A stretch of DNA of 64,000 bases from Escherichia coli (GCF_051903065.1 NZ_CP178438.1); one strand, 5' to 3'; shown: positions 37,297 through 64,000, counted from the first letter of the stretch. Program-made: numbers and translations. The notes: a model not told the origin generated them from the letters alone.

Positions 37297-37316
37297 ACCC
37301 AGAAAAGGAGTTTCCC

Positions 37317-38603: not shown

Positions 38604-38657
38604 CGAAAACGGCCCTGCATTCGCATGCAAGGCCGTGAATTATTACGAAAACAGAAA

Positions 38658-39284
<627 letters not shown>

Positions 39285-44498: not shown

Positions 44499-44508
44499 AA
44501 TAAATCAA

Positions 44509-44540
44509 GGGGTTACGTGAAAGCGTAGCCCCTTTTTCTT
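44509..44540 (+). terminator. intrinsic terminator downstream of ssrA
   Basis: Hairpin GGGGTTACG...CGTAGCCCC (one G:U) followed by TTTTTCTTT. Confidence 0.7.
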
Positions 44541-44621
44541 TGGTAGTGGCGGCAAAATGGCGACAGACTTTTGCGTCCATCTTGCCTGTCGCCATCTTGA
44601 AATCATGCAAAGAGGTTTCAC

Positions 44622-45104
44622 ATGGAAGAACTTCACTTTGTTTACATCAATGCAAATGGTCGTATCGGTGTTCACTCAATACAGAGCATCAGTTATAGCG
44701 AAAATCATATACAGGGCATTTGTAAGAACACCGATCGAATAAAAACCTTCCGAAAAGACCGCATTCTTAAACAGTACGATTCACCAGAACAAGCCATTCA
44801 GGAATGCGCGTCATTCCTCCCCGAAAACTACTCACATCTCACTAAGCAGTCTGGTCCGAAAAAAAATACATTCGATGTGTGCTTCACCGGATTTAAGAAA
44901 GCAGATAAAGAAAGATTGGTTGATAAGGCGAATGAACAAGGATTAACGGTAAGAACCTCTGTAACCCAAAGCCTTCAGATGCTCTGTTGCGGTTACAATG
45001 CAGGCCCATCAAAAGTATCGGCAGCCAGGATGAAAGGCACAATCATCATAGATGAGCCTGGCTTTATACATTTTCTTGAAACGGGTGAGATCCCAGATGA
45101 ATAA
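44622..45104 (+). CDS. hypothetical prophage cargo protein, WYL-like N-terminal domain plus BRCT-like C-terminal domain
   Basis: 160-aa ORF with AGAGG 10 nt upstream of ATG; N-terminal ...DRIKTFRKDRI resembles the WYL-domain RxFRxDRI strand; C-terminal FDVCFTGF...GLTV...GPSKVSAARMKGTIIIDEPGF resembles the LigA-type BRCT fold pattern. Confidence 0.6.
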   Translation: MEELHFVYINANGRIGVHSIQSISYSENHIQGICKNTDRIKTFRKDRILKQYDSPEQAIQECASFLPENYSHLTKQSGPKKNTFDVCFTGFKKADKERLVDKANEQGLTVRTSVTQSLQMLCCGYNAGPSKVSAARMKGTIIIDEPGFIHFLETGEIPDE

Positions 45105-45107
45105 AAA

Positions 45108-45125
45108 CCTGCCGTAGCAGGTTCT
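45108..45125. terminator. bidirectional terminator between the cargo gene and ogr
   Basis: Hairpin AACCTGC-CGTA-GCAGGTT flanked by A/T runs between convergent stops. Confidence 0.6.
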
Positions 45126-45130
45126 CTTTC

Positions 45131-45349
45131 TCAAAAATTCATATGCCCCTGACCACCTGGCAATGGATGTGGAGGGGCTGTAGCAATCAATGCAGGTGTC
45201 ACAATAAACCGGACCACTGTTTCATGGGTAACAAAAGTGCTCCCGCAGTTAATATTTTGGCACTGGCAGTAACGCTCTTTGGTGCTTTCTGTTACTTGAA
45301 AACTGCTCCTTGTGTGCGCCGCATGACCACACTTCGGACAATTCATCAT
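45131..45349 (-). CDS. ogr: Ogr-type zinc-finger late-gene activator
   Basis: From ATG at 45349 (or 45346): MMNCPKCGHAAHTRSS...KERYCQCQNINCGSTF...PHPLPGGQ matches the P2 Ogr CxxC-N22-CxxxxC pattern; ORF-track GTG extension rejected. Confidence 0.85.
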   Translation of the reverse strand: MMNCPKCGHAAHTRSSFQVTESTKERYCQCQNINCGSTFVTHETVVRFIVTPALIATAPPHPLPGGQGHMNF

Positions 45350-45417
45350 ATCCAGATCCCTACCTTTGCTATCAGAATCATTGTAATGATACACAAAATA
45401 TCAATATTGAGAACACT

Positions 45418-46518
45418 TTATTCCATTTCAAGATCATCAATCTTCACTTCGAGTTCAATACTGGTTGTAAAACCGTTATCCGGGCTGACGGTATGTGTCA
45501 GAGTCGTAATGGTCCATTCCGCATCATCTATCGGCTGTTTAAAGCCACTGACTTTCACTGGCATTTCCGTGTAGAGATCTGCCCGACCTTCCGCCAGTTG
45601 TAGCGAGAATGACGCAACGCCGCGTTGCAGGCGTTCCCACTGCATTTTCGCTGCCCGTTCAGCGTTGCTCCGGTTGGCATAAGTGCGATTAAGTACCAGC
45701 ACGTTTTCATCCGTACCCACCAGGTAATCGCCCTGCTTTGCTTCCGGCTCTTTCTTCTGCTTTGCGGTCCTGCGCTTACGCTTCACCGTGGTGCTTTCTT
45801 TCTTCGCGGGTTCGCGGGTATGCAACCAACTGGCAATTACGCCCGTATAGGCTCCGCGATCTGCCAGGGTAAAGCGGTGACTGTCGCCGTCCTTGCGTGT
45901 GATAGTGATCACCGGCAGAGGTTTACCGCTGGCGCTTTTGCCCTGTCCCTGCCGGATGAATAACAGATTGCCATTTTTCACCGACGCAATAGCACCGTAC
46001 TGGCGCGCCAGCCGCATCAGAAAACTGCCGTCACTCTCATTGGTCTGGTCTATATGTTCCACGGGCTTATCCGACAGGTCTTTACCCAGTGCCATCTTCA
46101 GCTTGTGCCGCGCGGCTATTTCCTTCACCACTTCCCCGACGGTGGTCTTGTGCCACGACTTTTCACGACGGGTATTCAGCGTTTCCCGAAAATCAGCACT
46201 TCGCGCCCGGATAGTCAGGCGGTCCGGTGCGCCAGTGTGTTCAATCTCGTCCACCGTGAATGCCCCTTTAGGGAAAAGCGGCTGCCCCTTCCAGCCCAGC
46301 GCCAGCGTAATGACCGCACCACGGCGCGGCAGCACGATTTTTCCGTCGGCGTCGTCCAGCTCCAGATCAAGCTGGTCCGCTTCAAAGCCCCGATTGTCCG
46401 TCAGAGTCAAACTCATCAGGCGGTTATCCAGCACAGTGGTGATATCCCTGCCCTCAATACTGATGCTGAATGCGGGAGTTTTGTTGCCTTTGTTAAGCAG
46501 TTCAGAGCTGAAATTCAC
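45418..46518 (-). CDS. D: tail protein D (P2 gpD-like)
   Basis: 366 aa at the position downstream of U; overlapping stop/start with U. Confidence 0.8.
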   Translation of the reverse strand: MNFSSELLNKGNKTPAFSISIEGRDITTVLDNRLMSLTLTDNRGFEADQLDLELDDADGKIVLPRRGAVITLALGWKGQPLFPKGAFTVDEIEHTGAPDRLTIRARSADFRETLNTRREKSWHKTTVGEVVKEIAARHKLKMALGKDLSDKPVEHIDQTNESDGSFLMRLARQYGAIASVKNGNLLFIRQGQGKSASGKPLPVITITRKDGDSHRFTLADRGAYTGVIASWLHTREPAKKESTTVKRKRRTAKQKKEPEAKQGDYLVGTDENVLVLNRTYANRSNAERAAKMQWERLQRGVASFSLQLAEGRADLYTEMPVKVSGFKQPIDDAEWTITTLTHTVSPDNGFTTSIELEVKIDDLEME

Positions 46519-47000
46519 GACAGCAGCCCTCCCACCGTTTTACTGATATCACTTAAGGCAGATGTTGCCGTGTCCTGCAGATTATTCAGTTGCGTACTGA
46601 GATCACCGAACATATCGGACAGGGATTCATCCACCCGTTTGAGCGACAGGGTGAACTCAATCCGGCGCGGCATACCGTCGCGGAAAAACTCCGTTTTAGT
46701 CAGATTCAGTCCCTCAATCACATACATGCCGTAAATCGTGCCGCTGCCTTCAATCAGGGGCCATGCTTTTCCCTGTTCTGCCATCTGCTCCAGAGCCAGC
46801 AACGACAGCCTGCCGCCCGTTATCTCCGGCATAAGAACACCAGAAAGCGTCAGCATGTCGTTGTCCGGTCCCAGAAACTGCGTGGACGGACGACGGTTTA
46901 CCCGGCTGTTTGCCGCATGTCGCCAGCTGCGTTGATACTGCAGTTCCTGATACGGAACGGTGCGCAGCATAAACACGTACAATCCCAGCACCATCATCAT
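46515..47000 (-). CDS. U: tail protein U (P2 gpU-like)
   Basis: 161 aa, position and size as P2 gpU; 4-nt overlaps with T and D. Confidence 0.8.
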   Translation of the reverse strand: MMMVLGLYVFMLRTVPYQELQYQRSWRHAANSRVNRRPSTQFLGPDNDMLTLSGVLMPEITGGRLSLLALEQMAEQGKAWPLIEGSGTIYGMYVIEGLNLTKTEFFRDGMPRRIEFTLSLKRVDESLSDMFGDLSTQLNNLQDTATSALSDISKTVGGLLS

Positions 47001-50000
47001 GCGTCGTATCCCCCCTGATCGCTGTAGTTACTCCTGGCTTTTGCCTTCAGCCTGCGTTCACGTTCATCAAGCTGGCGTGCCACCTCCCGCGCAATATCCT
47101 GCGCACTTTGTCCTGGCTGCGTCTGAATGATGATCTGCGTCGGTGCCTCAATCCGGTGAACGGGCGGCACAGTGGCTGCACGACTCACCATCGCTTCGCC
47201 GCCTTTCGCGGGAAGTGCCAAAGGATGCAACGGTGGAAGCTCTGCAGGCGCGGCAGCAACGCCCATCATTCCGGCAACAACGGCAGCCAGTGCAGCTGTA
47301 TTTCTCCGGCTGGTCACATTTGCCGGGCCGTTAACAATTTCCGGCCCGTTTTCACCGACGATGCCAAACTGCCCGCGCGGGATATAGCCGCCGCTGTCAT
47401 ACATCCCCGCAAAGCCATATCCCCATGACGGAAAACCACCCGGTGGCATCATCACTTTACCGTCTGCATTCACCGTCGCAGGTTGCTGACGCGTCACTCT
47501 TTCCGGCAGTTTCGCCTTTGCAGCCTCTTTACTGACAATGCCGAGTTTCTCCAGCAACCAGGAAACGCCGGATTTCAGGGAGTCCAGCGGATGCATGACC
47601 ATATTCAGCCCTTCCGCCAGTGCCTCCCCGAATCGTCGCCCCATTGCCGCTGCGCTCTGCAGTTCGGCAGAGGTCGACTTAACGGGCGTCAGCAGATCAG
47701 TAAACCAGCCCCACAACGCCTGCACTTTGTCGCCAATCCACTGAAACACAGGCTTAAGTGGTTCGAATGCTGCACTGATGGGACCTGCCGCCGCTTTGAA
47801 TCCTTCCACCACACCAGCGAGAAATGCGGTGATGGGTTGCCAGTATTTCCAGACAACCAGCGCCACGCCCGCCAGTGCAGTAACCACAAGACCTATCGGA
47901 CTGAGCAGAGCACCTAACAGACCAGATATGGCATACAGGGCAACGCGCAGCATCGCCAGCGGACCAGATGCAAGCACACGAAGCACCGCGCCTGCGGCAG
48001 CCAGTCCACCGCGCAGTACCGCCAGAGGATTCATAAACATCACAGCAACCGCACGTAAACCGGATAATCCAGACCGCAATAGTGCAACCGGCGCACCTGC
48101 TACAGTTTTCAGGACATTTCCCGTCAGTGATGCCGTACGGCGCAAAGACGACAACGGCGCAGTAAGTAAACCCGCTGCGTTACCCGATGAAGCAAGCCCG
48201 CGTCGCAGCACTGCCAGTGGTGCGCCTGCCAGCCAGGACAAAGCGTTGCTGGTTCGGGTTACTGCTGCCGTAACGGAAGGTAACGTTTTGATACCCAGCA
48301 CAGAGAGTCCCAGACGGATGACTGCCAGCGGCCCCAGCACTGCAGCCAGCGCCACCGCTAAGGTGCCGAGGCCCACGGTAACGGCAGCCACCACTGCGGC
48401 TACTTTCATCAGAGTGCCCGTCAGTTCCGGGTTAGCTTCCACCCAGCGACGCAACGCCCCCGTGACGCTTTTCACCGTGTACAGAATATCCATCAGCGGC
48501 TGGCGCAGCGTTTCGCCCAGGCTGCTGAAGGTGTTCTGTGCTCCGGTTTTGACCAGCAACCACTGAGCAGAAAGTGAGTCTTTGTTGATGTCGGATTCTT
48601 TCTGCATGGAGCCGAGCGCATCATTGCCCGCAGTCAGTTTTAGCTGGCGCTGTAGTTCCGGCAGGTTGTTTGCCAGTTTCGCCGCGTCATCGCCAAACTC
48701 TTTACCAAACAACATGGTCATGGCAGACAGACGCTTATCCTGCGGCAGTGCGTTCACCTTCTCCAGCACACGCTGGATAGTTCCCATCGCATCCTTCGTC
48801 ATCTGCTTTTCAATCACTTCAGGATTGAGTTTCAGCAGATTCATCCCTTCAAAGAAACTCTTGCTTTGCATGGTGGCAATGGACAATTCACGCACCATCG
48901 CGTTTGCTGCACTGGCTGCAACCTCCGGCGCAGCGCCCAGTGTCAGAAAGGTGGAACCCAGTGCCGCAGCTTTACGATAATCCAAACGGTCAGCCACACC
49001 ACCCAGGCGTTGCATGACATCAATAATGTCCGCCCCTTTCGACATGGCGTTATCATCCAGATAGTTCAGCGCATCACCGAGCTGTTCAATATTGCGGGTA
49101 GGGATTTTGTAGAGCTGGGCGATTTTCCCCAGACTTTCTGACAGTTCATCCGCTGGCAGCTCAAAGGCTGTTGCCGCCTTTGCTGCCGTACTGGCGAAGG
49201 CCAGCAGGTCACGTTTCTGGTCCTCCCAGCTGTCGTCAGGGTTTGCGACGTTCATGCGCGCCCCACCTTCAACCAGTGCAGCGAAATCCACCGCACCGTT
49301 TTCCATCGGCAACTGTTCGCTGGCAGCCTTGATGGCATCCTGCATTTCATAAAAACGTGCAGTGGGGTTGCCATTATCGTCACGCAGACCATTGACCTGC
49401 TTTGCCACACCTTTCATGGCATCTTCCATGCTGGTATAGATTTTTACTGCCGCCATCACTGGTGCGCCCATTGCCAGCCCTGCAGCCGTGGTGGTGGCTC
49501 CGGCACCTGCAATACGATCACGCACCTCCAGCGAACGGGCATAACTGGCACGCGCTGCATTCATCCTGCGCTGAGCTTCCCCCAGTCGCTTCAGCCGCGC
49601 CTCCTGTTTCGAAAGTTCCTGGTTATAACGTGATGTTTCACGGGCTAAACGGGCAGTTGCTCCCGCATCATCTTTCGCAGAAATTCCCGCCCGGTACAGT
49701 TCAGCACGCACAAGCGCCGTTTGCTTCTGCAAATATTTTTGTTGTTCTTCCAGGCGTTGGACTGCCAGCGTTTGCCGACCTAAAGCCACAAGATGCCTTT
49801 GTGATGGTTGCTCCATCGCCTCCAGCTCAGAGCTAAGCAAATTAGCCTTCTGTCTGGCATAGTTCAGCCTGTCGCCTAACTTCTTGTTATCAGCCTGCAG
49901 CTTGCGAAATTTTTCCAGGCTGTTACCCGCCTGATTGAGTTGCTTTAATGCGTCACGGGAGTTTCTGATTGCGCCAGCCAGCTCTTTCGAACTGGCCTGT

Positions 50001-50074
50001 GCAGCACGGAATGGGCGGGTGAGTTTGTCAACCGCATTAAGAATGACCTGCAGGCGCAGGTTGTTATCACTCAT
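46997..50074 (-). CDS. T: tail tape-measure protein (P2 gpT-like)
   Basis: 1025 aa, coiled-coil N-terminal part, hydrophobic repeat region, C-terminal Gly-rich part; downstream of E/E'. Confidence 0.88.
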   Translation of the reverse strand: MSDNNLRLQVILNAVDKLTRPFRAAQASSKELAGAIRNSRDALKQLNQAGNSLEKFRKLQADNKKLGDRLNYARQKANLLSSELEAMEQPSQRHLVALGRQTLAVQRLEEQQKYLQKQTALVRAELYRAGISAKDDAGATARLARETSRYNQELSKQEARLKRLGEAQRRMNAARASYARSLEVRDRIAGAGATTTAAGLAMGAPVMAAVKIYTSMEDAMKGVAKQVNGLRDDNGNPTARFYEMQDAIKAASEQLPMENGAVDFAALVEGGARMNVANPDDSWEDQKRDLLAFASTAAKAATAFELPADELSESLGKIAQLYKIPTRNIEQLGDALNYLDDNAMSKGADIIDVMQRLGGVADRLDYRKAAALGSTFLTLGAAPEVAASAANAMVRELSIATMQSKSFFEGMNLLKLNPEVIEKQMTKDAMGTIQRVLEKVNALPQDKRLSAMTMLFGKEFGDDAAKLANNLPELQRQLKLTAGNDALGSMQKESDINKDSLSAQWLLVKTGAQNTFSSLGETLRQPLMDILYTVKSVTGALRRWVEANPELTGTLMKVAAVVAAVTVGLGTLAVALAAVLGPLAVIRLGLSVLGIKTLPSVTAAVTRTSNALSWLAGAPLAVLRRGLASSGNAAGLLTAPLSSLRRTASLTGNVLKTVAGAPVALLRSGLSGLRAVAVMFMNPLAVLRGGLAAAGAVLRVLASGPLAMLRVALYAISGLLGALLSPIGLVVTALAGVALVVWKYWQPITAFLAGVVEGFKAAAGPISAAFEPLKPVFQWIGDKVQALWGWFTDLLTPVKSTSAELQSAAAMGRRFGEALAEGLNMVMHPLDSLKSGVSWLLEKLGIVSKEAAKAKLPERVTRQQPATVNADGKVMMPPGGFPSWGYGFAGMYDSGGYIPRGQFGIVGENGPEIVNGPANVTSRRNTAALAAVVAGMMGVAAAPAELPPLHPLALPAKGGEAMVSRAATVPPVHRIEAPTQIIIQTQPGQSAQDIAREVARQLDERERRLKAKARSNYSDQGGYDA

Positions 50075-50503
50075 CGTTGGCCCCGCATCTCTGAATCGCT
50101 TTATACCGCCATTCCAGCACTTCGGTCAGCGGCATAACGTCAGTAACGGATGGCGGCCAGTGAAAAATGGTGGCGATATCTGCCACCAGATCGTCAACCG
50201 TCAGGCTGTCGGTAAACCGGCAAGTACCGACTTCTTCAACAAAAAAGTGACAACCTCAACCGACATAGCGGTGAGATCTGCCGGGTCCATCTCTGCAATT
50301 TCCTGTGCAGTCAGTGCCGGGCTGGAGATGCGGGGGATCACGGTCATCATCGCGTTCACATCCATATCCATAATGGCCTGCAGGCGTGTACCGCGCAGTG
50401 CACCGGACTGCGGTTTACGCAGCACAATTTCGGTGATTTCCGTTTTACCGCGCTTGATAGGGGTATCCAGTTGAATAGTCTTTTCAGTCTGCTTATCGCT
50501 CAT
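50067..50503 (-). CDS. E': tail assembly chaperone E' (E plus -1 frameshift extension, about 145 aa)
   Basis: -1 frame is open from the slippery site T-TTT-TTG (50246-50240) to a TGA at 50069-50067, overlapping the T start codon by 8 nt. Confidence 0.7.
50201..50503 (-). CDS. E: tail assembly chaperone E (P2 gpE-like)
   Basis: 100-aa ORF between FII and T containing the slippery heptamer near its 3' end. Confidence 0.8.
   Translation of the reverse strand: MSDKQTEKTIQLDTPIKRGKTEITEIVLRKPQSGALRGTRLQAIMDMDVNAMMTVIPRISSPALTAQEIAEMDPADLTAMSVEVVTFLLKKSVLAGLPTA
50240..50246 (-). promoter_or_regulatory. programmed -1 ribosomal frameshift slippery heptamer TTTTTTG
   Basis: Heptamer in X-XXY-YYZ register within E (codons ACT-TTT-TTG). 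Confidence 0.7.
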
Positions 50504-50557
50504 TTTTCTGTCCTGTAAATTGGGTTCTGGCGCGGCATTCCGCGCCGTTCAGATACA

Positions 50558-51073
50558 TCAGAGGCCGAGTGCGTTGCGGTGCGCTTCCATCAGGTCCACA
50601 CCGTCCACAATTTCCACCATGTTGATAAGGTCCACTTCATAGAGCACCTCACCATTGATAGTCAGCTTCGCGTAGCTGTTGGTACTGGTCACTTTGGTGG
50701 TGTTGCTTTCGCCCGTCTTCCACTCGCCGGAATCCACTTCTTTGTGACGTCCACGCACCACAAGCTCCACGGCCTGCACTTCTCCGGTATCGTCACGCTG
50801 GATAGAGCCGGTGAAGCGCAACTGGATGCCATCCACCGTGGCTTTGCCCATCTGTTTAAACAGCAGCAGTTCAGTACCACCAATGGAAAATTCTGTGTCC
50901 AGCGCACTGTCATCAAGCCCCAGATCCACATCCACTGCACCCGGCATTCCGCCGCCGCGATACTTCTCATATTTGCGGGTGAATTTCGGCAGCGTCAGCG
51001 ACTCAACGATCCCCTGCCAGTTGTTCCCGTCATTAAACAGGTTCAGGTGTTTTAATTTGCGTGGTAAAGCCAT
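50558..51073 (-). CDS. FII: tail tube protein (P2 gpFII-like)
   Basis: 171 aa immediately downstream of the sheath gene. Confidence 0.85.
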   Translation of the reverse strand: MALPRKLKHLNLFNDGNNWQGIVESLTLPKFTRKYEKYRGGGMPGAVDVDLGLDDSALDTEFSIGGTELLLFKQMGKATVDGIQLRFTGSIQRDDTGEVQAVELVVRGRHKEVDSGEWKTGESNTTKVTSTNSYAKLTINGEVLYEVDLINMVEIVDGVDLMEAHRNALGL

Positions 51074-51082
51074 GTTGTCCCC

Positions 51083-52255
51083 TTACGCGCTGACCTGGCT
51101 GGAGAAATTCACCAGGTACTGATCGGTGATGCGCTGACGCAGCATCAGGTTTTCAAGTGGCGGCACTGGCGTGTAGTCGTAGTCGATGGTGAGTTTTCCG
51201 GCTTTCAGCGTGTCTTTGTCGTTCACCGACTCATCCAGCCAGCAATCACCACCAATGAGATAGCCCTGACTGACCAGGCTGCGCATTTTGGCGCGGATAC
51301 CCTCGATAATGTCGCGGGCCAGCGACGGATTCAGCGGTTTATCCACCGCCCACATGTGCGCTTCTGCCATCGTGTCCGTCAGCACCTGCGCCGTGCGGGT
51401 GTAGTTTTCGAAGGCAAAGAGCGGGTCATCACTCAGGCAGCGGGAACCCCAGAAGCGAAAACCGTCTTTGCGGATAAGGGTGGTGACGTCGTTCTGGTTC
51501 AGCAGTCCCGCATCGGTTGCCGGGTCCTGCAGATCCCAGAACACATCAGCAGAAATTCCGGTGACACCGTTAACGCCCACGTTGGACAGGCTTTTGTGCC
51601 ATCCGGTCTGCTCGTCAATTTTGGCGCGCAGACCAAGCGCACGGGCGGTGGCATAAGCCGTTGCTTCGGCATTCAGCACCGTGTCCCAGCCAGTAAAGTC
51701 GGGCCAGATCAGCATTCCTTCGCGCTGGCTGAAGTTTTCACGGTAAGTGATCGCCTCCTGTACCGTCTTGCAGCCATACGCTGACAGGTAGGCAAACCCA
51801 CGCAGGCTTTGCGCCACGCTCAGCAACTCAGTAGCAACGGCTTTGTTATCGTGACCTGGCACGCCGAGAATGCGCGGTTTAACGCCGAGCTGTGTCTGGG
51901 CAGATAACAGGGCTTTCATGCCTGTTTTTTTACCTTCAGCAGTCACTGCGCCGATGATATTGGTCGTGGTTTCTTCTTCCGTTTCACCCTGCGGCACACG
52001 CACAACAACGGTCACTGGTTTTGCCTGGTCAGCGATGGCATCCAGCGAACGGGCCAGCGTGCCGGACTCACCCGCTTTACCGCTGGCAGTCAGCACATCA
52101 GTGATCAGCACGGGTTTATTAAGAGGAAACATTTTTGCATCGGCATCATCGCCCGTGCAGACCATACCCACGATGGCGGTGCTCACCGTGGTAATGGATC
52201 GGGTGCCTTCGTTGACTTCAGCAACGCGCACCCCGTGGTGGTAATCCTGAGCCAT
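51083..52255 (-). CDS. FI: contractile tail sheath protein (P2 gpFI-like)
   Basis: 390 aa, sheath-like sequence, first gene of the FI-FII-E-T-U-D operon. Confidence 0.88.
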
Positions 52256-52331
52256 AGTGGCGAACCTCCTGATTGGATTAGGCTTCGCCCTATGTTGAAG
52301 TGATTGTGCCTGACAAACAGCTAAGCACAGT

Positions 52332-52349
52332 TGTGTCGTTATTCACACA
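52332..52349. promoter_or_regulatory. Ogr-box-type dyad TGT-N12-ACA upstream of FI (late promoter candidate)
   Basis: TGTGTGAATAACGACACA on the minus strand, centred about 85 bp upstream of the FI start. Confidence 0.55.
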
Positions 52350-52397
52350 AAATGACGGTATTTGTCCGCTTACAGGAAAAATCAAAATAATACTGAC

Positions 52398-52964: not shown

Positions 52965-53019
52965 GATCAATCCCCTGAATAAAAACCGGGGATGATGCCA
53001 GTTAGCCATTATCTCTGCA

Positions 53020-56219: not shown

Positions 56220-57120
56220 CCGTTCCTCCGTTGGTTACGCTCCACTGCGTACATGATGCCGCCTGTGTTTTGTTCAGGACCACATCCGCCAGAGGAGAAG
56301 CCAGCTCCACACGCTGCACACCCTCAACATGCAGGGCGGCAAAGATGGCGCTACGGCGAATATCCCGACCAAGACGCGTCTGACTGGCGATGTACTTCTG
56401 CAGGCTGGCTTTTGCCGCTGCCATTACCGGCTCTGCTTCCGGTCCCGGATAGAGAAAAATGGTGGCTTCCACGCGATACGGGATGATTTCTGCGCTGCGA
56501 ACCGTCAGACGGTCAGCCACCGGGCGGACGTTCTCACTGTTCAGAGCTTTTTCCACCACGTCCAGCAGGTCTTTTTCTGCAGTTCCATCGCCTTCGCGGC
56601 TAAGGACAGTCAGCACCACCTCTGCAGGTGCCGGGCTGGTTGCACTGGCATCCGCCACCCGACCGTCGGCGCTTCGGGCATGAAATTCATAAGCTGCAGT
56701 TGGCCCCGCAACAGAAAGCCCTTCAAAGGCTGCAGGCACACGCAGGCGTAACGCTTCATCGCTTTCCATCACAGCTGCAACGGGCGGCACAGCATCATTA
56801 TCAGCAGGCGTCACCGTCAGGCGTGTCACGTTGTAGTTGGCAGCGAGCTGGTCAAGATCGCCGCCCATCGCGTAAGCCACCATCACCGCCTGCGCGGCTT
56901 CGTTAATGCGCTGGCGCAGAAGCAACTCACGGTAAGCGTTCTCCTGCAACAATTTAGTGACGGGTTCAGATTCCAGTTCCAGCGTTCGGATCACGGCTTC
57001 CTGCTCATCTTTCGGATGAAGCGCCACAAATTCTGCCTTGCGTTCGGCAAGCAGCGTCTCAAAGTCCGGCACATCCACAATCTGCGGTGCAGGCAACTGC
57101 GAAAGGTCAATCACTGCCAT
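56212..57120 (-). CDS. J: baseplate protein J (P2 gpJ-like)
   Basis: 302 aa from ATG at 57120 (MAVIDLSQLPAPQIV...), matches the gpJ sequence pattern recalled for P2. Confidence 0.88.
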   Translation of the reverse strand: MAVIDLSQLPAPQIVDVPDFETLLAERKAEFVALHPKDEQEAVIRTLELESEPVTKLLQENAYRELLLRQRINEAAQAVMVAYAMGGDLDQLAANYNVTRLTVTPADNDAVPPVAAVMESDEALRLRVPAAFEGLSVAGPTAAYEFHARSADGRVADASATSPAPAEVVLTVLSREGDGTAEKDLLDVVEKALNSENVRPVADRLTVRSAEIIPYRVEATIFLYPGPEAEPVMAAAKASLQKYIASQTRLGRDIRRSAIFAALHVEGVQRVELASPLADVVLNKTQAASCTQWSVTNGGTDE

Positions 57121-57466
57121 TCTCTGCTCCTGTTGATACGGAAAGGGACACAGGCACACCGTTATTCCGCCGCCCGGTCAGCTCCACCACCATAGAACCG
57201 TCAAAGTTGCTGTTGATGGTGATGGAATCCAGCGTCAGCCGTGGCTCCCAGCGACTCAGCGCCACATACACTGCCGACATGACCTGCAGGCGTAATGCCG
57301 GATTTTGTGGCTGATCTATTAAAACCGACAGGAGGGAACCATATTCCCGGCGGGCAATACGGCTACCCTGCGGTGTCAGCAGAATGTCCCGCACCGACTG
57401 GCGCAGATGATCAATATCAGTAATGACTTTGCCGCTGGTATTGTTCATCCCGCTATAAAGCGTCAT
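57107..57466 (-). CDS. W: baseplate protein W (P2 gpW-like)
   Basis: About 115-119 aa, motif SRWEPRLTL; position between V and J. Confidence 0.85.
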   Translation of the reverse strand: MTLYSGMNNTSGKVITDIDHLRQSVRDILLTPQGSRIARREYGSLLSVLIDQPQNPALRLQVMSAVYVALSRWEPRLTLDSITINSNFDGSMVVELTGRRNNGVPVSLSVSTGAENGSD

Positions 57467-58041
57467 ACCGGGCCTCCGGTTGTATCGCCGCCTTTCAGGA
57501 CGCCAGTATGCTGATGCGCATCAACCACGATCCCGTTAGAACTCATCGCTCCGCCGCCCTGGGTAACGCCACCATTGATCACCACTTCGCTGTTAATGCG
57601 CGTGCGGTCAGCCTCCAGTACAAACTCACTGGTTTTCATGGTGATGTTGTCAGCAGCCTCAATGACCATTGATTTGATGCCCCTGACATACCAGCGCCCG
57701 GTGGCGGGTTCGTATTCAAACCAGCCACCGTCAGGATGTTCTGTCACGCAGGCGTCCGCCGACGTCGACGGTGGTGCGAACTGATTCGAATAGACAGCGG
57801 GCAGCGCAAAGGCGGTTTCCAGATTGCCGCCCAGACTCAGCAGCACCACCTGCTCACCTTCCGATGGTCGCCACCATGTACGGGCATTCCCGGCACGCAG
57901 CGTCAGCCAGCTGATCCAGTTGGTTTCAAGCTCGCCCGTTTTCACCCGGCAAAGCCAGTTTTCCCTGTCCACTTCGGTGACTACCCCTGTGCGGATCAGG
58001 TTGGTGATAAGGCGCATGATTTCGGTTAATTGTGCGTTCAT
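57463..58041 (-). CDS. V: baseplate spike/assembly protein V (P2 gpV-like)
   Basis: 192 aa; first gene downstream of a TGT-N12-ACA dyad. Confidence 0.82.
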   Translation of the reverse strand: MNAQLTEIMRLITNLIRTGVVTEVDRENWLCRVKTGELETNWISWLTLRAGNARTWWRPSEGEQVVLLSLGGNLETAFALPAVYSNQFAPPSTSADACVTEHPDGGWFEYEPATGRWYVRGIKSMVIEAADNITMKTSEFVLEADRTRINSEVVINGGVTQGGGAMSSNGIVVDAHQHTGVLKGGDTTGGPV

Positions 58042-58087
58042 AGGGAAAGGTTGCCATCAGGGGAAGAAAGGCGGCAATGCTGCAACT

Positions 58088-58105
58088 TGTATCAGTGCTG
58101 ATACA
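58088..58105. promoter_or_regulatory. Ogr-box-type dyad TGT-N12-ACA upstream of V (late promoter candidate)
   Basis: TTGTATCAG-TGCTGA-TACAA; extended perfect 9-bp inverted arms; centred about 55 bp upstream of the V start. Confidence 0.6.
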
Positions 58106-58109
58106 AAGA

Positions 58110-58556
58110 TCACCCCGCCAGCCATTGCAGAATCATGTCACGGGTCATTGCCTCAACATCATCATTTACACCCAGAAGGCGACGCTCTGCGTAACGCACC
58201 TCCGGTCCCTTACGACTGACGCGATCTCGCAGGCCGTAATGGTGAACGCGGGCAATGCGCTGCACCTTGCCTTCAAACTGCACGCTGGCAGAGTCGGTGC
58301 TGGCGGCAGTTTTCAGGTATTTTGTGGTGCGCAGCTTTGCAAACATCTGACGTTTGATACGGCCTTTTTTACTGCGTGCTGTTACCCGTCGCGGTTCATA
58401 GCTGCTGCCGTCAGGGTTGCGCTGCATCCTGATATTCTGCTGCTGTGTCCGGCGAAGTTCCTGCGCCAGCTGGCGCATCATGCGGCTTCTCGTGGCTGGT
58501 TCCAGATTCGCCAGCAAGGCACTCAGCCAGTCGTCCACCTTCTGCAGTTCAGCCAC
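58110..58556 (-). CDS. S: tail completion protein S (P2 gpS-like)
   Basis: 148 aa; position and size. Confidence 0.78.
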   Translation of the reverse strand: MAELQKVDDWLSALLANLEPATRSRMMRQLAQELRRTQQQNIRMQRNPDGSSYEPRRVTARSKKGRIKRQMFAKLRTTKYLKTAASTDSASVQFEGKVQRIARVHHYGLRDRVSRKGPEVRYAERRLLGVNDDVEAMTRDMILQWLAG

Positions 58557-59001
58557 GTTTCACCGTCCACATTTCTTCAGGTGCATCAGGTTCCGCTATA
58601 GCTTCAACGCTCGACACACTGCCGTCAGTGCTGACCAGCACACGCTCCGTCAGTTGCAGGTTCAGGCTGATATCACAGACATCGTTGCGCAGAATATCCA
58701 CCTCAAAGGTGAATAACTTTTCCCGTAAAGCTGGATTATTGATGGCATCGGGCTGGTTATCCCGCAGCCACAGCAAAACCGGGGCCATCAGCAGATTCTG
58801 GTCGCCGCTGAAATCCTCAATCACCACGTTCAGGGTGTAGCGGTACTCCCATGACATGGAGCTGGCCCCCGTGGCAACCAGCGAACCGTTATCCACAAAC
58901 AGATGCAGTTTGTCCGGGTTATTGCGGACATAAGGCACCGCCTTATTGAGTGCGTGGCGCAGGGATTGTGGTTTGTTCACTATTTCGCTCCTGACACGCA
59001 A
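58549..59001 (-). CDS. R: tail completion protein R (P2 gpR-like)
   Basis: 150 aa; position and size. Confidence 0.78.
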   Translation of the reverse strand: MRVRSEIVNKPQSLRHALNKAVPYVRNNPDKLHLFVDNGSLVATGASSMSWEYRYTLNVVIEDFSGDQNLLMAPVLLWLRDNQPDAINNPALREKLFTFEVDILRNDVCDISLNLQLTERVLVSTDGSVSSVEAIAEPDAPEEMWTVKRG

Positions 59002-59233
59002 TAATCATGTCCACTTTGTCTGCACAGACCGCCCAGGCGGCCTCCGTTTCATCCAGCAACGCGTTCAGATCACCGTTAGTGTGCGGCGCTGTCTGATCCA
59101 GCCGACACGGCGTCACTCGCGGACAGCCACTGACGGTAAGCTGCACCTCCGGTGAATGCCGGGCGTTTCCGCAGCCGGATAATGTCAGCAGGCAAAGGAG
59201 TATCAGCCCAGCGGCGTAAATCCTCGTTCTCAC
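58943..59233 (-). CDS. lysC: outer-membrane spanin lipoprotein (LysC/Rz1-like), embedded in lysB in another frame
   Basis: Lipobox LLTLSGC, Pro-rich mature part; starts within lysB and runs into R. Confidence 0.6.
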   Translation of the reverse strand: MRTRIYAAGLILLCLLTLSGCGNARHSPEVQLTVSGCPRVTPCRLDQTAPHTNGDLNALLDETEAAWAVCADKVDMIIACQERNSEQTTIPAPRTQ

Positions 59234-59504
59234 GTTTCAGTTCCTCGATCCGGTGTTGTCGTTGACTCAGCAGCGCGCTAGTCTGTTCTGCTTCGGCATA
59301 GAGCCGCGCCTGCTCCCGGTTATTGGTTTCAGCCAGAATGGACAGACCGATCAGCTGGCTGTTTTTCTTCGTCAGTTCCTGCGCTTTACTTTTCAGCGCC
59401 GTGCGCTGCGTTTCGATGGTGTGGCTGGCGCTGTTAAGCCGCCACGACTGCCAGCCCAGCGCAACGAGTGCCAGCGCCACCACTACTGCCAGTGCACGCG
59501 TCAT
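59076..59504 (-). CDS. lysB: inner-membrane spanin (LysB/Rz-like)
   Basis: 142 aa; N-terminal TM segment, coiled-coil periplasmic part. Confidence 0.75.
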   Translation of the reverse strand: MTRALAVVVALALVALGWQSWRLNSASHTIETQRTALKSKAQELTKKNSQLIGLSILAETNNREQARLYAEAEQTSALLSQRQHRIEELKRENEDLRRWADTPLPADIIRLRKRPAFTGGAAYRQWLSASDAVSAGSDSAAH

Positions 59505-60016
59505 AGTCCAGCTCCTTTAAGGCACCAGGCCATCTCCCGCGCACGGCGGTTATCCAGCCCCTGATTAAACACACCTTTTACATACACCCAGCGCGGCAAC
59601 TGTCGGCACGCATCCGCCCAGCGCCGCTGATTGAGCAATTTCACCAGCGTGGAACTACAGGCATTGCCCGTCCCCACGTTGAAGGCAAACGACACCGTAG
59701 CGTCATACACCTTCTGCGGTGGCTGTTGCTTCACACACCTTTCCAGCGCCCGCTCCACACGTAGCACGTTGGAGATCAGCCCTTCCGCTGCCTGTCGTTC
59801 CGTAATGGTTTTGCCTGGAATGACGCCAGATGTATTACCAATGCCGTCGGTCCAGACACCCGCGCTGCACTGATACGGCTGCAGACGACAGCCTTCGTAA
59901 TCGGCAATCAGTTTCAGCCCCTCCACGGAGGTGTGAAGCTGCTGAAAACCCGGCAGCGTGGCAGCAATAGCCAGCACGGCCCCGACAAGGCAGCGTTTAA
60001 CGATTGATGGATTCAT
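59501..60016 (-). CDS. K: endolysin, T4-lysozyme-like with SAR-type N-terminal segment
   Basis: 171 aa; N-terminal Ala/Gly-rich hydrophobic stretch CLVGAVLAIAATLPG then EG-x-RL...Y...GVWT-GIG lysozyme pattern. Confidence 0.8.
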   Translation of the reverse strand: MNPSIVKRCLVGAVLAIAATLPGFQQLHTSVEGLKLIADYEGCRLQPYQCSAGVWTDGIGNTSGVIPGKTITERQAAEGLISNVLRVERALERCVKQQPPQKVYDATVSFAFNVGTGNACSSTLVKLLNQRRWADACRQLPRWVYVKGVFNQGLDNRRAREMAWCLKGAGL

Positions 60017-60212
60017 AGTCCTCCCGCGAGATCTGCCCGTCGCGCAGAAGCTGGTAGGCTTTGTGTTTGTAGTACCAGTTGATAGCCAGCATCAGCACAC
60101 CAATCATCAGGCCGCCCAGCGTTGAGGCATCCTTGATGGACAAATCGCCCAGCCAGGCCAGCACAACGGCGATGCAGTACGTGATAAAGGCGCTGATTCG
60201 CTCAAGCGTCAT
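59997..60212 (-). CDS. small two-TM holin (pinholin-like)
   Basis: 71 aa, two hydrophobic helices and charged C-terminus, immediately upstream of the endolysin. Confidence 0.7.
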   Translation of the reverse strand: MTLERISAFITYCIAVVLAWLGDLSIKDASTLGGLMIGVLMLAINWYYKHKAYQLLRDGQISREDYESINR

Positions 60213-60215
60213 AAT

Positions 60216-60419
60216 TCAGTCCCATAGCTGGACGGTCTGCACGGTGGTGGTGGTCGGAATGTCCGGCAGCTCCACCTGCAGCCCGTGAGGTAAAAAGGGG
60301 CCATATTCGGCAAGCCCCGGATTTGCCTTCAGTACCTGCTCCGTGACACCCTGCGTGCGCCCGTAATGACGCCAGCAAAGCGCGTCCACCGTGTCATACT
60401 GATGCGCACGCACTTTCAT
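60216..60419 (-). CDS. X: tail protein X (P2 gpX-like)
   Basis: 67 aa, same size and position as P2 gpX. Confidence 0.75.
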   Translation of the reverse strand: MKVRAHQYDTVDALCWRHYGRTQGVTEQVLKANPGLAEYGPFLPHGLQVELPDIPTTTTVQTVQLWD

Positions 60420-60946
60420 CAGATAAGCTCCACTGTGCAGTGCGGCGCATCCTGCACCCGGCTGATGGCCCAGCGGGCGTCACGCCACAAATCACCGCTT
60501 GATTCCGCCAGTTCCTCGCTCCGCTTCACACCGGATGCCGTGGCGTCATAGTCCTGGTAACGTTCGTTGAGCATGGCGCGAGCCCAGCAGTAAACCGCGT
60601 TGAAATAGTGCTGAATGCGCTCACTTTTCCCGTCCAGCTGTTCCGCCGGAACCTCAGCCAGCGACGCATACCCCAGCATCTGCTGGCGTCTGCGAAACTC
60701 ATACAGCTCTGCGTTAACCTCCGAAATTGCCGACAGCGCAACCTGCTTTAAACGCGGCTGCGTCACCGTGCCGTCAGTGCGCATGACACTGCGAAACTCC
60801 GACAGGTCCACATCAGGCCAGAACGGCGTATTCCTGATGATTTCCGCCTGTTCCGGTGCCTGTTCTGGCGCAACAAACTTCATGCTGCTTTCTCCTGAAA
60901 TAGAGGGCGGTGGACGGGGTTTTGATGTGGCAGTGCCTTTCGCCAC
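60419..60946 (-). CDS. L: head completion protein L (P2 gpL-like)
   Basis: 175 aa; position downstream of M. Confidence 0.78.
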   Translation of the reverse strand: MAKGTATSKPRPPPSISGESSMKFVAPEQAPEQAEIIRNTPFWPDVDLSEFRSVMRTDGTVTQPRLKQVALSAISEVNAELYEFRRRQQMLGYASLAEVPAEQLDGKSERIQHYFNAVYCWARAMLNERYQDYDATASGVKRSEELAESSGDLWRDARWAISRVQDAPHCTVELI

Positions 60947-60978
60947 CCCGTGCCGCCCGTGCGCGGGGGCACGTTCTG

Positions 60979-61629
60979 TCAGCGGCTGTCATTGCGCAGT
61001 CTGCGCTCCAGCTGCTGTTTGTCTTTTTTCACGCCACAGCGGGGATCGAGCTGTAGCGCATGGTTGAGATGATTAAGGGCGAACGCCGGATTGTTTTCAC
61101 TCAGAACAGCGCCAATCGCTTTATGCAGACGCGCCCGTGACTGGTCCGGCATATCCATACCGTCTGTCAGCTCCAGCGTCTGCAGCAACAGATCGGCATC
61201 AAAGCCGGTGGCGGCAAGCATTGCGCTCTGGGCTGCATCTGCCATTTCCTCTGCCAGCACGGTCTGCACGTTGCGGTTACCCAACGGCATCACCCAGCCA
61301 TGACGCAGGGCGTGACGCCCGATCTCCAGCGCCCCGGCATAATCTCCGGCATCAATGCGCCACAGCATCACGTACATCAGCACGTCATCCTGCTGTACGC
61401 CTCCGGCAGTCAGGACACCCTCTGCCCAGGCGGCGTACTTCGGCAGCAGTTCCACCTTAATTTCCGCTTTTTTGACCGTGGACTGAACGCCCTTGAGACG
61501 GCGGCGGTCTTCCGCCAGTTGCAGCAGCATCAGGTCATAGCCCGACGCGTGGCGAACGCTGCCGCCCTCGCGGGCGGCCTGTTCAGCCTGAACGCGCAGG
61601 CGATGCTGCCGTGCGGGACTCAGGCTCAT
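60979..61629 (-). CDS. M: terminase small (endonuclease) subunit M (P2 gpM-like)
   Basis: 216 aa; position between N and L. Confidence 0.78.
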   Translation of the reverse strand: MSLSPARQHRLRVQAEQAAREGGSVRHASGYDLMLLQLAEDRRRLKGVQSTVKKAEIKVELLPKYAAWAEGVLTAGGVQQDDVLMYVMLWRIDAGDYAGALEIGRHALRHGWVMPLGNRNVQTVLAEEMADAAQSAMLAATGFDADLLLQTLELTDGMDMPDQSRARLHKAIGAVLSENNPAFALNHLNHALQLDPRCGVKKDKQQLERRLRNDSR

Positions 61630-61632
61630 GGG

Positions 61633-62691
61633 TTACGCTCCGGCTTCTGCTGCAGCGGCGCTGAAATCGCCAATCTGGATGTTTTCCACCAGTGCGGCGC
61701 AGCGGTAATCCTCAACCACATAGGCTTCGTTAACGGATTCAAAGTTTTCAATCCGGTCACGTTTCGGGTTGTCGATAACTGAACGGCGGCGGGTGTCTTC
61801 CTGCCAGTAGATGGACAGGTTATCCAGACGGGTGATCAGCAGCGCATTCGGCGGGAAGAACGGCGCACGCACGGCCTGCAGGCCACCCATGCGTTTCTGG
61901 CTGATGATCATATCGGCAGCCAGTTTTTCACTGTTTTCCTGCTCTTTGTTGACCAGCGGGAAATACTTGTCAGACAGCAGTTCACGACCGCAAATCACCA
62001 CCAGATCGTCATCGTCCTGGTAGACCACGTCGATAAGCTCATTGACGGCATCCATCACCACGGCGTCCAGGTTGGCATATTCGCCACCTTTACCGACTTT
62101 CACCGCACCCGGTGTGGTTTCACCGCCCGTGGTGGTGCTGCCCATGACGTGATCCGGTGCATCTTCACGGATTTTCTGCAGCCAGCCTTTGTTCACATCC
62201 TGCAGCAGCGGGCTTTCGCTACGGTTGGAGGTTTTCGCACGCTTCACGCCGTTAAAGCCGATCATGATGCGGTCCAGTGCCTGACGTTTTACGATGGCGT
62301 CACGGATACGCACCTGGAAATCCTGAAACTTCGCCCACAGGTCCAGCTTCGCGTAGGTCAGCACCGTGTCAAAGTTAGTCTGCTCGCATTTATATTCCAC
62401 ATCGACCATCAGCGTCGGATCGACAGGCTCACGCTCTTTAGCTGTGGTATCAGTGGTTCCGGCAATGGTGCTGCCAACACCCAGCCCCAGCAACTGACCA
62501 GACTGCTCAGTCACTGGCGTGACGTTAATCAGCGTCAGGAATGCGGCGGACTGCTGGATCTGATCTTCCAGCGTCTGCTGCACAGACGGCTCTACAGTGA
62601 ACTTGCTGGACAGTTCTTCAACGGCCACACCGTTCAGACGCGCCAGCTGCTGCAGGTAAGCGTTAAAAGCAAAGCGGGTATTCTTCTTCAT
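61633..62691 (-). CDS. N: major capsid protein N (P2 gpN-like)
   Basis: 352 aa; size and position. Confidence 0.85.
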   Translation of the reverse strand: MKKNTRFAFNAYLQQLARLNGVAVEELSSKFTVEPSVQQTLEDQIQQSAAFLTLINVTPVTEQSGQLLGLGVGSTIAGTTDTTAKEREPVDPTLMVDVEYKCEQTNFDTVLTYAKLDLWAKFQDFQVRIRDAIVKRQALDRIMIGFNGVKRAKTSNRSESPLLQDVNKGWLQKIREDAPDHVMGSTTTGGETTPGAVKVGKGGEYANLDAVVMDAVNELIDVVYQDDDDLVVICGRELLSDKYFPLVNKEQENSEKLAADMIISQKRMGGLQAVRAPFFPPNALLITRLDNLSIYWQEDTRRRSVIDNPKRDRIENFESVNEAYVVEDYRCAALVENIQIGDFSAAAAEAGA

Positions 62692-62707
62692 CGGGTTTTG
62701 TGCTCCA

Positions 62708-63541
62708 TCAGCAATTGGTCAGAGTGTCAGCGTGGGCGTTACCGCCTGTTGCACGCTGGCGGTAGTCCTGGCGGCTGTCTTCATGACTCAGCTTATTCAC
62801 CAGTTCGTTAAAGGCGGTCTGCTGTGCCTGCAGGGCAGTCTCCAGCTCAGACAGACGTTCTTCCTGCTCAGACAGGGATTTTTCGGTGCGTGCGCTCAGG
62901 TTTTGCTGCTCAGTGGCGACCAGCTCCACGGCCTTATGCACATCAGAGAACCGGGCATCGTCGGACTGCTCTTTTTTGGTGAACAGCGCCGTGACGCGGG
63001 CAAACAGGGACGGCTTGTCCTCCTGGATTTCTTCCAGTTCGATCACCGTTTCCTCTGCGGCGGTAAAGAGATTGGCGGGATTCTGCTTGCGGTTTGCCAG
63101 CGGGTTATGGGCTGCACTGGCGCTGAATGTCAGCATTTCAGTGCCCAGACTGGCAGGGTCATCAGTGGCAGCCAGGCCGACCAGGTAGGCTTTGCCCGTA
63201 TCAGCAAACTTCGGGCTGACTTCCATAGAGGTGAATAATTTCTGGCCTTTTTTCACCAGTTCCACCAGGGATTCCGTTGGCTCAACGTCGGCATACAGCG
63301 CCATCTTGCCTGCCAACGGACCTTCCGTGATTTCTTCAGCAAACAGCGCCGTCACCTTGCCGTAGCGGTTAAAGGTGCTGTCCGGCAGATAAGACTTGAT
63401 GTGCTCAAGGTTAATCAGCGCGGTATACACCGCCGGGTTGTAGCTGGCTGCCATCTGTTCCAGCCATTCACGCTGGATTTCGCGTCCGTCGGTGGTGGCA
63501 CCTTCCACCCCGATGCGAAAACGCTTTGCTTTCACTGTCAT
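62708..63541 (-). CDS. O: capsid scaffolding protein O (P2 gpO-like)
   Basis: 277 aa, coiled-coil acidic C-terminal part; first gene of the O-N-M-L operon. Confidence 0.82.
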   Translation of the reverse strand: MTVKAKRFRIGVEGATTDGREIQREWLEQMAASYNPAVYTALINLEHIKSYLPDSTFNRYGKVTALFAEEITEGPLAGKMALYADVEPTESLVELVKKGQKLFTSMEVSPKFADTGKAYLVGLAATDDPASLGTEMLTFSASAAHNPLANRKQNPANLFTAAEETVIELEEIQEDKPSLFARVTALFTKKEQSDDARFSDVHKAVELVATEQQNLSARTEKSLSEQEERLSELETALQAQQTAFNELVNKLSHEDSRQDYRQRATGGNAHADTLTNC

Positions 63542-63618
63542 GAGCCGTGCTCCGTTAGAAAAAACTTACTGGAGCCTTATGGTTGCGGTGATGGGGGCAG
63601 TGAAACAATGCGCGGTAT

Positions 63619-63636
63619 TTGTACCGACAACCACAC
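63619..63636. promoter_or_regulatory. Ogr-box-type dyad TGT-N12-ACA in the divergent O/P intergenic region
   Basis: TGTACCGACAACCACACA, about 86 bp from the O start and 55 bp from the P start. Confidence 0.5.
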
Positions 63637-63682
63637 AAACCGCAGGCGGGGAAAGCCTTCATTCAAGGCTGTAGGTTTGTGC

Positions 63683-64000
63683 CATGAACACCACACTGAC
63701 ACCCGCAGATCTCGATCCCCGTCGGCAGGCCATGCTGCTGTACTTTCAGGGATACCGCGTCGCCCGCATTGCTGAAATGCTAGGCGAGAAAGTTGCAACC
63801 GTTCACAGCTGGAAAAAACGCGACAAGTGGGGTGACTATGGGCCGCTGGATCAGATGCAGCTCACCACCGCCGCACGCTACTGCCAGCTCATTATGAAGG
63901 AGCACAAAGAAGGGAAAGATTTCAAAGAGATTGACCTGCTGGCGCGCCAGTCGGAGCGCCACGCGCGGATCGGCAAGTTTAACAATGGCGGCAACGAAGC
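63683..64000 (+). CDS. P: terminase ATPase subunit P (P2 gpP-like), N-terminal part; continues beyond window
   Basis: MNTTLTPADLDPRRQAMLLYFQGYRVARIAEMLGE...HSWKKRDKWGDYGPLD matches the gpP N-terminal pattern; no stop within window. Confidence 0.85.

Follow-up and report, generated by a model that had tools for sequence, protein, structure and literature searches.

The window analysed here is a stretch of 64,000 nucleotides (nt) from one strand of the Escherichia coli genome GCF_051903065.1 (NZ_CP178438.1). Its last part, from 44499 to 64000, follows the 3′ end of ssrA, the gene for tmRNA, and carries a long block of P2-type phage late genes that begins with the activator gene ogr. A description made from the DNA alone (below, the sequence-only reading) had taken this part for a P2-family prophage inserted at ssrA and met from its ogr end. 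The comparisons reported here bear this out, the Fels-2 prophage record likewise starting with att, ogr, D, U and T, although the element is better described as belonging to the Fels-2/186-like branch of the Peduoviridae. The features around the junction of chromosome and phage DNA are as follows.

44136-44498, + strand: ssrA (tmRNA), the integration target
44454-44498, + strand: core of the left attachment site (attL), 45 bp, common to ssrA, the phage attP and the distal att copy of relatives
44507-44543, + strand: intrinsic terminator from the terminator scan (hairpin 44507-44534; 12-bp stem, 4-nt loop, U-run)
44547-44594, no strand: ogr-side attP arm with candidate integrase (Int) arm-type sites, from a motif search
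44622-45104, + strand: accessory gene, 160 codons, between attL and ogr
45106-45123, no strand: hairpin from the terminator scan, candidate two-way terminator between the convergent accessory gene and ogr

The only tmRNA call made by ARAGORN was at 44136-44498, with the tag peptide ANDENYALAA, and Rfam model RF00023 matched this interval from end to end with 295.8 bits, against a gathering score of 47. All 363 of its 363 nucleotides are identical to those of K-12. The window is collinear with the K-12 chromosome from position 1 to 44500 (nadB to ssrA, 96.8-99.3% identity), a span that includes rrnG, clpB, pheA, ffh, recN and smpB, and homology to K-12 ends at 44500, 2 nt past the CCA of ssrA. 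The G+C content is about 0.43 just past ssrA and then 0.54-0.59 over the phage genes. The earlier statement that conserved chromosome stops at the 3′ end of ssrA therefore stands, whereas its placing of the joint exactly at 44499 does not: the DNA is phage-only from 44499 onward, but the real joint may lie anywhere within the core at 44454-44498.

The core, ATGTAGGAATTTCGGACGCGGGTTCAACTCCCGCCAGCTCCACCA, is the last 45 bp of ssrA, and its partner can be seen in relatives. In one of these (L001, NZ_AP042483), which is 99.6% identical to the window across the junction, a perfect second copy lies at 36567-36611, just beyond a site-specific integrase gene and one cargo gene, and 13.9 kb past the point equivalent to window position 64000. 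The order past its late genes is P, Q, cargo, a dinI-like gene, A, dam, cII, an apl-like gene, cI, int, cargo and core, and the gene set is complete. A second relative (L016, NZ_CP035822.1) also has two perfect cores, one of them at 20785, after int. The sequence-only reading had predicted that the integrase, immunity and replication genes and a second att copy would lie beyond 64000, the integrase and repeat within about 15 kb, and L001 is built in this way. The free, cos-ended phage Cartapus (NC_070909, Elveevirus) has an intact attP with the identical 45-bp core and carries no more of ssrA than those 45 bp; its int-side arm is the left flank of the right attachment site (attR) of L001, and its ogr-side arm is the window from 44499 on. 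This three-way match between the window, the L001 attR and the Cartapus attP is the pattern expected of recombination between attP and the bacterial site attB. Fels-2 (NC_010463, Felsduovirus) agrees: the attP halves annotated in its record join into the same core plus AA, so that the core is identical over 45 bp, and the ogr-side arm is near-identical for about 75 bp, terminator included. Int in the E. coli relatives shares 92-95% of its residues with Fels-2 Int, 54% with that of phage 186 and about 39% with that of P2. The CI repressor of L001 is 95% identical to Fels-2 CI, while those of Cartapus and L001 are only 58% identical to each other, and immunity types therefore vary within the Fels-2-like E. 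coli group.

The terminator begins 8 nt past the CCA, in phage DNA, and folds with -19.8 kcal/mol (z -4.64). Its hairpin is kept in Fels-2 and Cartapus, and at this position K-12 has a different sequence, which comes from the element CP4-57. In the Cartapus attP, too, the 45 bp lead into this hairpin, in agreement with the suggestion that the ssrA 3′ end and terminator of this strain were supplied by the phage. In the lysogen it is this structure that ends ssrA transcription and, judging by its position, it would end the cI-int transcript too in the circular phage. Beyond it, exact copies of TGGCGACAG lie in opposite orientations at 44558 (+) and 44586 (-), with the related TGGCGGCAA at 44548. 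Similar motifs are clustered beside the core on both arms in Cartapus, and comparison with the arm-site annotation of phage 186 makes them candidate Int arm sites.

The same left junction was present in 169-187 of 5,426 complete E. coli genomes (about 3%), and the right junction, in which the int-side arm is joined to the core, in 195 of the 5,426. The latter count was obtained with a 130-bp probe of arm plus core, used in place of a 212-bp probe that covered 14 genomes only, as it entered the variable cargo gene between int and att. In genomes without the phage the attR probe matches only over the 45 core nt, at ssrA itself.

Two further observations concern the surroundings of the distal core. 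A CP4-57-type integrase gene lies directly past it in L001 (36777-38006) and in L016 (20996-22225), so that in both of them the P2-like prophage forms part of a tandem array, as the member nearest to ssrA; in a Citrobacter locus (L018) another integrase gene lies directly upstream of the homologue of the accessory gene, which suggests that the tandem order of elements may be reversed there. The slot between int and core holds different cargo in each relative: a hypothetical protein of 309 amino acids in L001 (35552-36481), a protein with an HNH motif in L016 (19663-20658) and a RES-domain protein in Cartapus (23583-24788). This variety fits the int-att hotspot of bioRxiv 10.64898/2026.02.27.708500.

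The late genes are listed next. Where no match is quoted, the assignment comes from comparison with Fels-2, P2, 186 and Cartapus.

45131-45349, - strand: ogr (homologue of 186 B), zinc-finger activator of late promoters (PF04606 Ogr_Delta, 9e-21)
45418-46518, - strand: gpD, tail/baseplate hub (Pfam Phage_GPD; 88% to Fels-2, 99% to Cartapus)
46515-47000, - strand: gpU, tail protein
46997-50074, - strand: gpT, tape measure, 1025 amino acids (PhageMin_Tail; 96% to phage 500465-1, 89% to Cartapus)
50067-50503, - strand: gpE (50201-50503) and E′ extension (50067-50186), with slippery TTTTTTG
50558-51073, - strand: gpFII, tail tube (95% to Fels-2)
51083-52255, - strand: gpFI, tail sheath (90% to Fels-2; 68-69% to P2 and 186)
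55614-56219, - strand: gpI, baseplate
56212-57159, - strand: gpJ, baseplate, longest reading frame (likely start near 57120, as annotated in relatives)
57107-57466, - strand: gpW, baseplate wedge
57463-58041, - strand: gpV, baseplate spike
58110-59001, - strand: tail completion proteins gpS (58110-58556) and gpR (58549-59001)
58943-60212, - strand: lysis cassette, with lysC (within 58943-59233), lysB (59076-59504), endolysin K (59501-60016) and holin Y (59997-60212)
60216-60946, - strand: gpX (60216-60419) and gpL, head completion (60419 to about 60883; longest reading frame to 60946)
60979-63541, - strand: gpM, small terminase (60979-61629), gpN, major capsid protein (61633-62691), and gpO, scaffold (62708-63541)
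63684-64000, + strand: gpP, large terminase, first 105 codons, cut by the window end (Terminase_5, 2e-28)

Between 45131 and 63541 every long open reading frame (ORF) is on the - strand, and P, divergent from O, runs off the end of the window on the + strand. The order is ogr, D, U, T, E′/E, FII, FI, an invertase gene, H, I, J, W, V, S, R, lysC/lysB, K, Y, X, L, M, N, O and the start of P. An ORF map combined with tblastn against P2, 186, Fels-2 and Cartapus showed that the expected P2-type late genes are all full-length ORFs on the - strand in the P2/Fels-2 order, P excepted. Thus, of the earlier claim that a full late-gene set follows ssrA in canonical order, the order and the genes through O were confirmed, but P is represented by its first codons only, and Q and cos lie beyond 64000. 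Pfam matches include Ogr_Delta, Phage_GPD, PhageMin_Tail, Phage_tail_fib and Terminase_5.

Nearly all of the proteins are 80-95% identical to those of Fels-2, full-length and collinear, compared with only 28-69% for P2 and 186. Lower values against Fels-2 were found for T (68% over two thirds of its length), for H, which matches in its N-terminal part only, and for Ogr, which scores 74 bits with PF04606 (cutoff 26.3) and is 70% identical to Fels-2 Ogr, 61% to 186 B and 56% to P2 Ogr; the end of its gene is 633 bp from the att core. M, N and O are 93%, 91% and 84% identical to Fels-2 and 96-99% to Cartapus. Against Cartapus, the late proteins in general are 84-100% identical over 98-100% of their length, except for H, the C-terminus of which lies in an invertible segment described below, and all 27 late genes and the invertase are full length. 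In DNA sequence the block comes closest to records of E. coli phages and prophages, with about 96.5% identity over 19.5 kb, a match to known phages far beyond chance.

Near the end of E there is a T6G slippery site (TTTTTTG, 50240-50246) with the E′ ORF downstream, and the P2 record annotates a frameshift joining E and E′; by analogy, E′ is probably made here via a -1 frameshift on this site. Within T, a stretch of about 370 bp (49533-49900) matches 500465-1 but has no match in Cartapus or Fels-2, an instance of local mosaicism in a conserved gene. A + strand ORF at 58077-58601 was considered as a gene and rejected as an antisense shadow of gpS.

Three sites in the block are candidates for activation by Ogr.

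52332-52349, no strand: TGT-N12-ACA dyad, candidate Ogr site of the F late promoter (centre 85 nt from the FI ATG, versus 83 in P2)
58088-58105, no strand: TGT-N12-ACA dyad TGTATCAGTGCTGATACA, candidate Ogr site of the V late promoter, in the 68-bp gap between V and S
63620-63637, no strand: TGT-N12-ACA dyad in the divergent O/P promoter region (compare the common activator site of pO and pP in P2)

In P2-type late promoters the transcription start is preceded, at a distance of about 55 nt, by a TGT-N12-ACA dyad. Such dyads occur in all three late-promoter gaps, and there are 8 in the 19.5-kb prophage part against 3.8 expected from base composition. The distances from dyad to start codon mirror the activator sites annotated in P2, the V dyad being centred 55.5 nt upstream of the V ATG with a geometry identical to that of P2. 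The gap between V and S (58042-58109) is an empty 68 bp here, but it holds an AIPR-family gene in L001 (15098-16804) and a 176-codon ORF in Cartapus (9255-9785); it is the same position as orf30 of P2, a cargo hotspot that is unoccupied in this copy.

The tail-fibre gene H is associated with a DNA inversion system, composed of the following elements.

52398-52964, - strand: serine DNA invertase of the Gin/Cin/Hin type (Pfam Resolvase and HTH_7; 85% to the Fels-2 invertase)
53020-54581, no strand: invertible segment, bounded by 27-nt inverted crossover sites at 53020-53046 and 54555-54581 (repeat search)
54226-55617, - strand: gpH, tail fibre, 463 amino acids in the current orientation (Phage_tail_fib, 3e-64)

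The invertase contains the resolvase domain (PF00239, 2e-53) and, at its C-terminus, PF02796 (HTH_7, 1e-15), and the crossover site at 54555-54581 falls within H. Two cassettes lie between the sites: one in the expressed orientation (-), comprising the C-terminus of H (54226-54554) and a small ORF (54042-54329), and a silent one (+), comprising an alternative H C-terminus that runs to 53468 and then a tail-fibre assembly gene (53468-54073, 201 codons). Their Pfam matches are to Collar and Caudo_TAP. Inverting the segment in silico gave an in-frame H of 494 residues, the first 354 as in the present protein of 463, with the assembly gene directly after it. The N-terminal three quarters of H are 98% identical to Cartapus, and the sole large block without a Cartapus match, 53047-54553, lies exactly between the crossover sites. 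In 500465-1 the homologue of the silent cassette lies in the expressed orientation. By analogy with the G segment of Mu, we infer that the Gin-type invertase flips the 1.5-kb segment and so would alternate two tail-fibre C-termini, and with them host range. The DNA between the crossover sites is swapped as a unit among phages that are otherwise 96-99% identical, and the short ORF of the expressed cassette belongs to phrog_5400 and stands in place of the standard tail-fibre assembly gene.

Taken together, these data indicate that 44454-64000 consists of attL and the late-gene half of a Fels-2-like Peduoviridae prophage in the 3′ end of ssrA, a reading to which we give a probability of about 0.93. 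The element is an ordinary member of a described phage group at a described site, and in this sense it is already known. In the passage of PMC3448106 that cites Pelludat et al. (2003), Fels-2 and SopEPhi are stated to integrate into ssrA, and the gene is the target of several elements including CP4-57 (PMC10107115). Integration took place by recombination of attP with ssrA, presumably catalysed by a Fels-2-type tyrosine integrase, attP being composed of an int-side arm, a copy of the 45-bp 3′ end of ssrA and an ogr-side arm. The crossover lies inside the 45-bp identity, so that ssrA stays intact but the part from the crossover to the CCA, and the terminator, are now phage DNA; in such lysogens, then, the tmRNA 3′ end and terminator are phage-derived. 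The ogr end abuts ssrA and, judging from relatives, the cI-int end with the second core should lie about 14 kb past the window. Both core copies are perfect in the relatives, so excision should restore an intact ssrA and be harmless; excision of CP4-57 is reported to delete T357 of ssrA, damage tmRNA and switch ribosome-rescue pathways (PMC10107115). During lytic growth, to judge from P2 and 186, Ogr would activate the dyad-bearing late promoters, the O and P operons presumably sharing one dyad, and these promoters would drive the head, lysis, tail and packaging genes. For annotation, the analysis fixes the left boundary of the element (the core at 44454-44498), its type and the expected place of its other end.

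Several points weigh against this reading. The exact prophage was found in no genome or contig, the best match of its variable region among complete E. coli genomes being 94.5% identical, and no record contains the exact H protein; neither Fels-2 nor Cartapus nor 500465-1 matches the expressed-orientation H cassette (54052-54554). The distal att of this copy, its int gene, its genes for immunity and replication, Q and cos are outside the window and are known from relatives only, Q, cos and gpA being present in L001 and Cartapus. Finally, L016 shares the junction but has an internal deletion from FII to P, which means that an intact left half is no proof of an intact or inducible prophage. In that locus (7559-9002) about 15 kb from mid-FII to mid-P have been lost while both perfect cores, cI and int are kept, and it is thus a decaying copy of this phage.

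The deletion in L016 raises the question of whether the present element is a defective or cryptic remnant, in which the part past 64000 has been deleted, disrupted by an insertion sequence (IS) or left without a working integrase. The 500465-1 record, with IS21-family genes inside the gpA region, and CP019275, with many frameshifts that are possibly sequencing errors, point in the same direction. However, the 27 late genes and the invertase are preserved at full length relative to a free phage, no damage is seen in the regulatory dyads, the slippery site or either crossover site, and the gene set of L001 is complete, and we therefore consider a remnant unlikely. That ssrA itself is on a mobile element, borne by a phage or together with the whole block by a plasmid, is suggested by CP019275, which was deposited as a circular 37-kb "plasmid" with ssrA, smpB and this prophage; but that record, in which recN and bamE are present too, resembles a piece of chromosome that was misassembled, the ssrA sequence in Cartapus is confined to the last 45 bp of the gene, and the collinearity of the 44.5 kb upstream with the K-12 chromosome and the identity of ssrA to that of K-12 refute the idea, leaving it next to no probability. 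An R-type tailocin, a P2-derived element consisting of a tail only, would have the complete contractile-tail and lysis gene set seen here, but it is refuted, with a chance that is practically nil, by the capsid, scaffold, head-completion and terminase genes (N, O, L, M and partial P), which are 84-100% identical to those of a free phage.

Comparison with described phages places the prophage more closely. With Fels-2 and SopEPhi it shares the ssrA target, the att-ogr-D-U-T orientation, the att core and the arm of about 75 bp with the terminator, the collinear late genes and, at the corresponding position, an invertase with its invertible tail-fibre segment. Unlike this phage, Fels-2 is from Salmonella, is only about 82% identical in DNA over 84% of the region, is without the 160-codon gene between att and ogr, and has a shorter tape measure, other contents in the invertible segment and small ORFs between endolysin and lysB, of which there are none here. 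Cartapus and 500465-1 (NC_049342, Wadgaonvirus) are closer, with 96-96.5% DNA identity over 90-96% of the prophage part, the same attP core, arm, terminator and accessory gene and late genes that correspond one to one; they differ in the contents of the invertible segment and part of T, and Cartapus also in the occupied V-S gap. Phages 186 (Eganvirus) and P2 (Peduovirus) have in common with it the gene order, the Ogr/B activator, dyad late promoters, the E/E′ frameshift and an attP between ogr/B and int, but they are remote in protein and integrase sequence. Like this prophage, 186 integrates in the 3′ end of a tRNA-like gene via a long core that restores the gene, but its target is ileY, and P2 has a 27-bp attP core that is not a tRNA-gene end. 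In P2, moreover, fun(Z) occupies the place of the invertase, and the switch is C/Cox, in contrast to the CI/Apl/CII of the relatives. CP4-57 of K-12, with its integrase IntA, uses the same 3′ end of the tmRNA gene, but neither the element nor its integrase is related to the phage, and its own int gene adjoins ssrA. The inversion system resembles the G segment with Gin of Mu and the C segment with Cin of P1: there too a serine invertase lies by a segment with inverted crossover sites of about 26 nt in a fibre gene, and two convergent cassettes each hold a fibre C-terminus and an accessory gene, a comparison also drawn in the records of relatives. Here, however, a P2-type genome carries the system, at the fun(Z)/G position, and one cassette has the 201-codon assembly gene while the expressed one has a short ORF.

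The sole lead for new biology at this locus is the accessory gene, which encodes a WYL-like/BRCT protein of 160 amino acids and is tied to the att/lysogeny region of many P2/186-like phages. A tblastn comparison found no counterpart of it in Fels-2, 186 or P2. It belongs to a family of proteins of about 160 amino acids found across the Enterobacterales (phrog_2561), and the Cartapus homologue is 99% identical. The protein has a BRCT fold at its C-terminus and a beta domain at its N-terminus, for which a model shows five strands. The assignment of the N-terminal domain as WYL is weak, only 4 of 43 family members matching PF13280 (best 1.5e-5). PADLOC gave only a weak match, to PDC-S48 (1.8e-7, over the BRCT part), and a literature search brought up no paper that connects WYL, BRCT and prophages. 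Public labels of the family are DNA ligase, exonuclease, BRCT protein and hypothetical; the "DNA ligase" and "exonuclease" labels in phage records were rejected, as the likeness to LigA is limited to the BRCT domain.

The position of the gene varies between hosts. Homologues were located in Cartapus (L007, 22813-23295) and in loci L008 (6001-6486), L011 (6001-6525), L013 (6001-6486), L019 (4001-4483) and L021 (4001-4483). In Yersinia (Y. ruckeri), Xenorhabdus and Serratia prophages the homologue is in the lysogenic operon, in the first two directly after cI and in Serratia after a pair of genes encoding helix-turn-helix and Flk_N proteins; the Serratia and Xenorhabdus copies are upstream of int. 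In the lineage of E. coli, Citrobacter and Pantoea it lies beside the att end, on the ogr side, and the order in the E. coli lineage is cI, int, cargo, attP and the 160-codon gene. In the window it starts 123 bp downstream of ssrA, with the shared terminator in between; it is preceded by a good ribosome-binding site, and a promoter scan found no sigma-70 promoter between the terminator and its ATG. We raise, as a doubtful idea that is probably wrong, that the gene belongs to the lysogenic (cI-int) transcription unit of the phage and that integration detaches it and puts it behind the very strongly transcribed ssrA. Should read-through from ssrA drive the gene, one might speculate that integration acts as a switch by which a host promoter takes over a factor of lysogeny, in a mirror image of the sib retroregulation of lambda; such a factor could sense DNA damage or nucleic acid, or it could serve in exclusion.

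Some public records of these phages need care. NC_049342 and CP019275, the two best-matching phage records, are mis-delimited: they include E. coli chromosomal genes and are uninformative on attP, for which Cartapus was used. In NC_049342.1 (500465-1, Wadgaonvirus wv5004651) this concerns positions 30338-39179, these being about 9 kb of E. coli chromosome from smpB to ffh, and the record has IS21-family genes within the replication region. CP019275.1, "plasmid p13P477T-2" (32851-37446), is a circularised chromosomal piece with ssrA, smpB, recN and this prophage. In the chromosomal part of the window, collinearity with K-12 is broken only at 3153-3177, 18183-18204 and 34962-34977, which correspond to srmB-yfiE, the gltW-rrsG spacer and rpsP-ffh. 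At each of these K-12 is about 100-150 bp longer, and the extra DNA probably represents small repeat elements.

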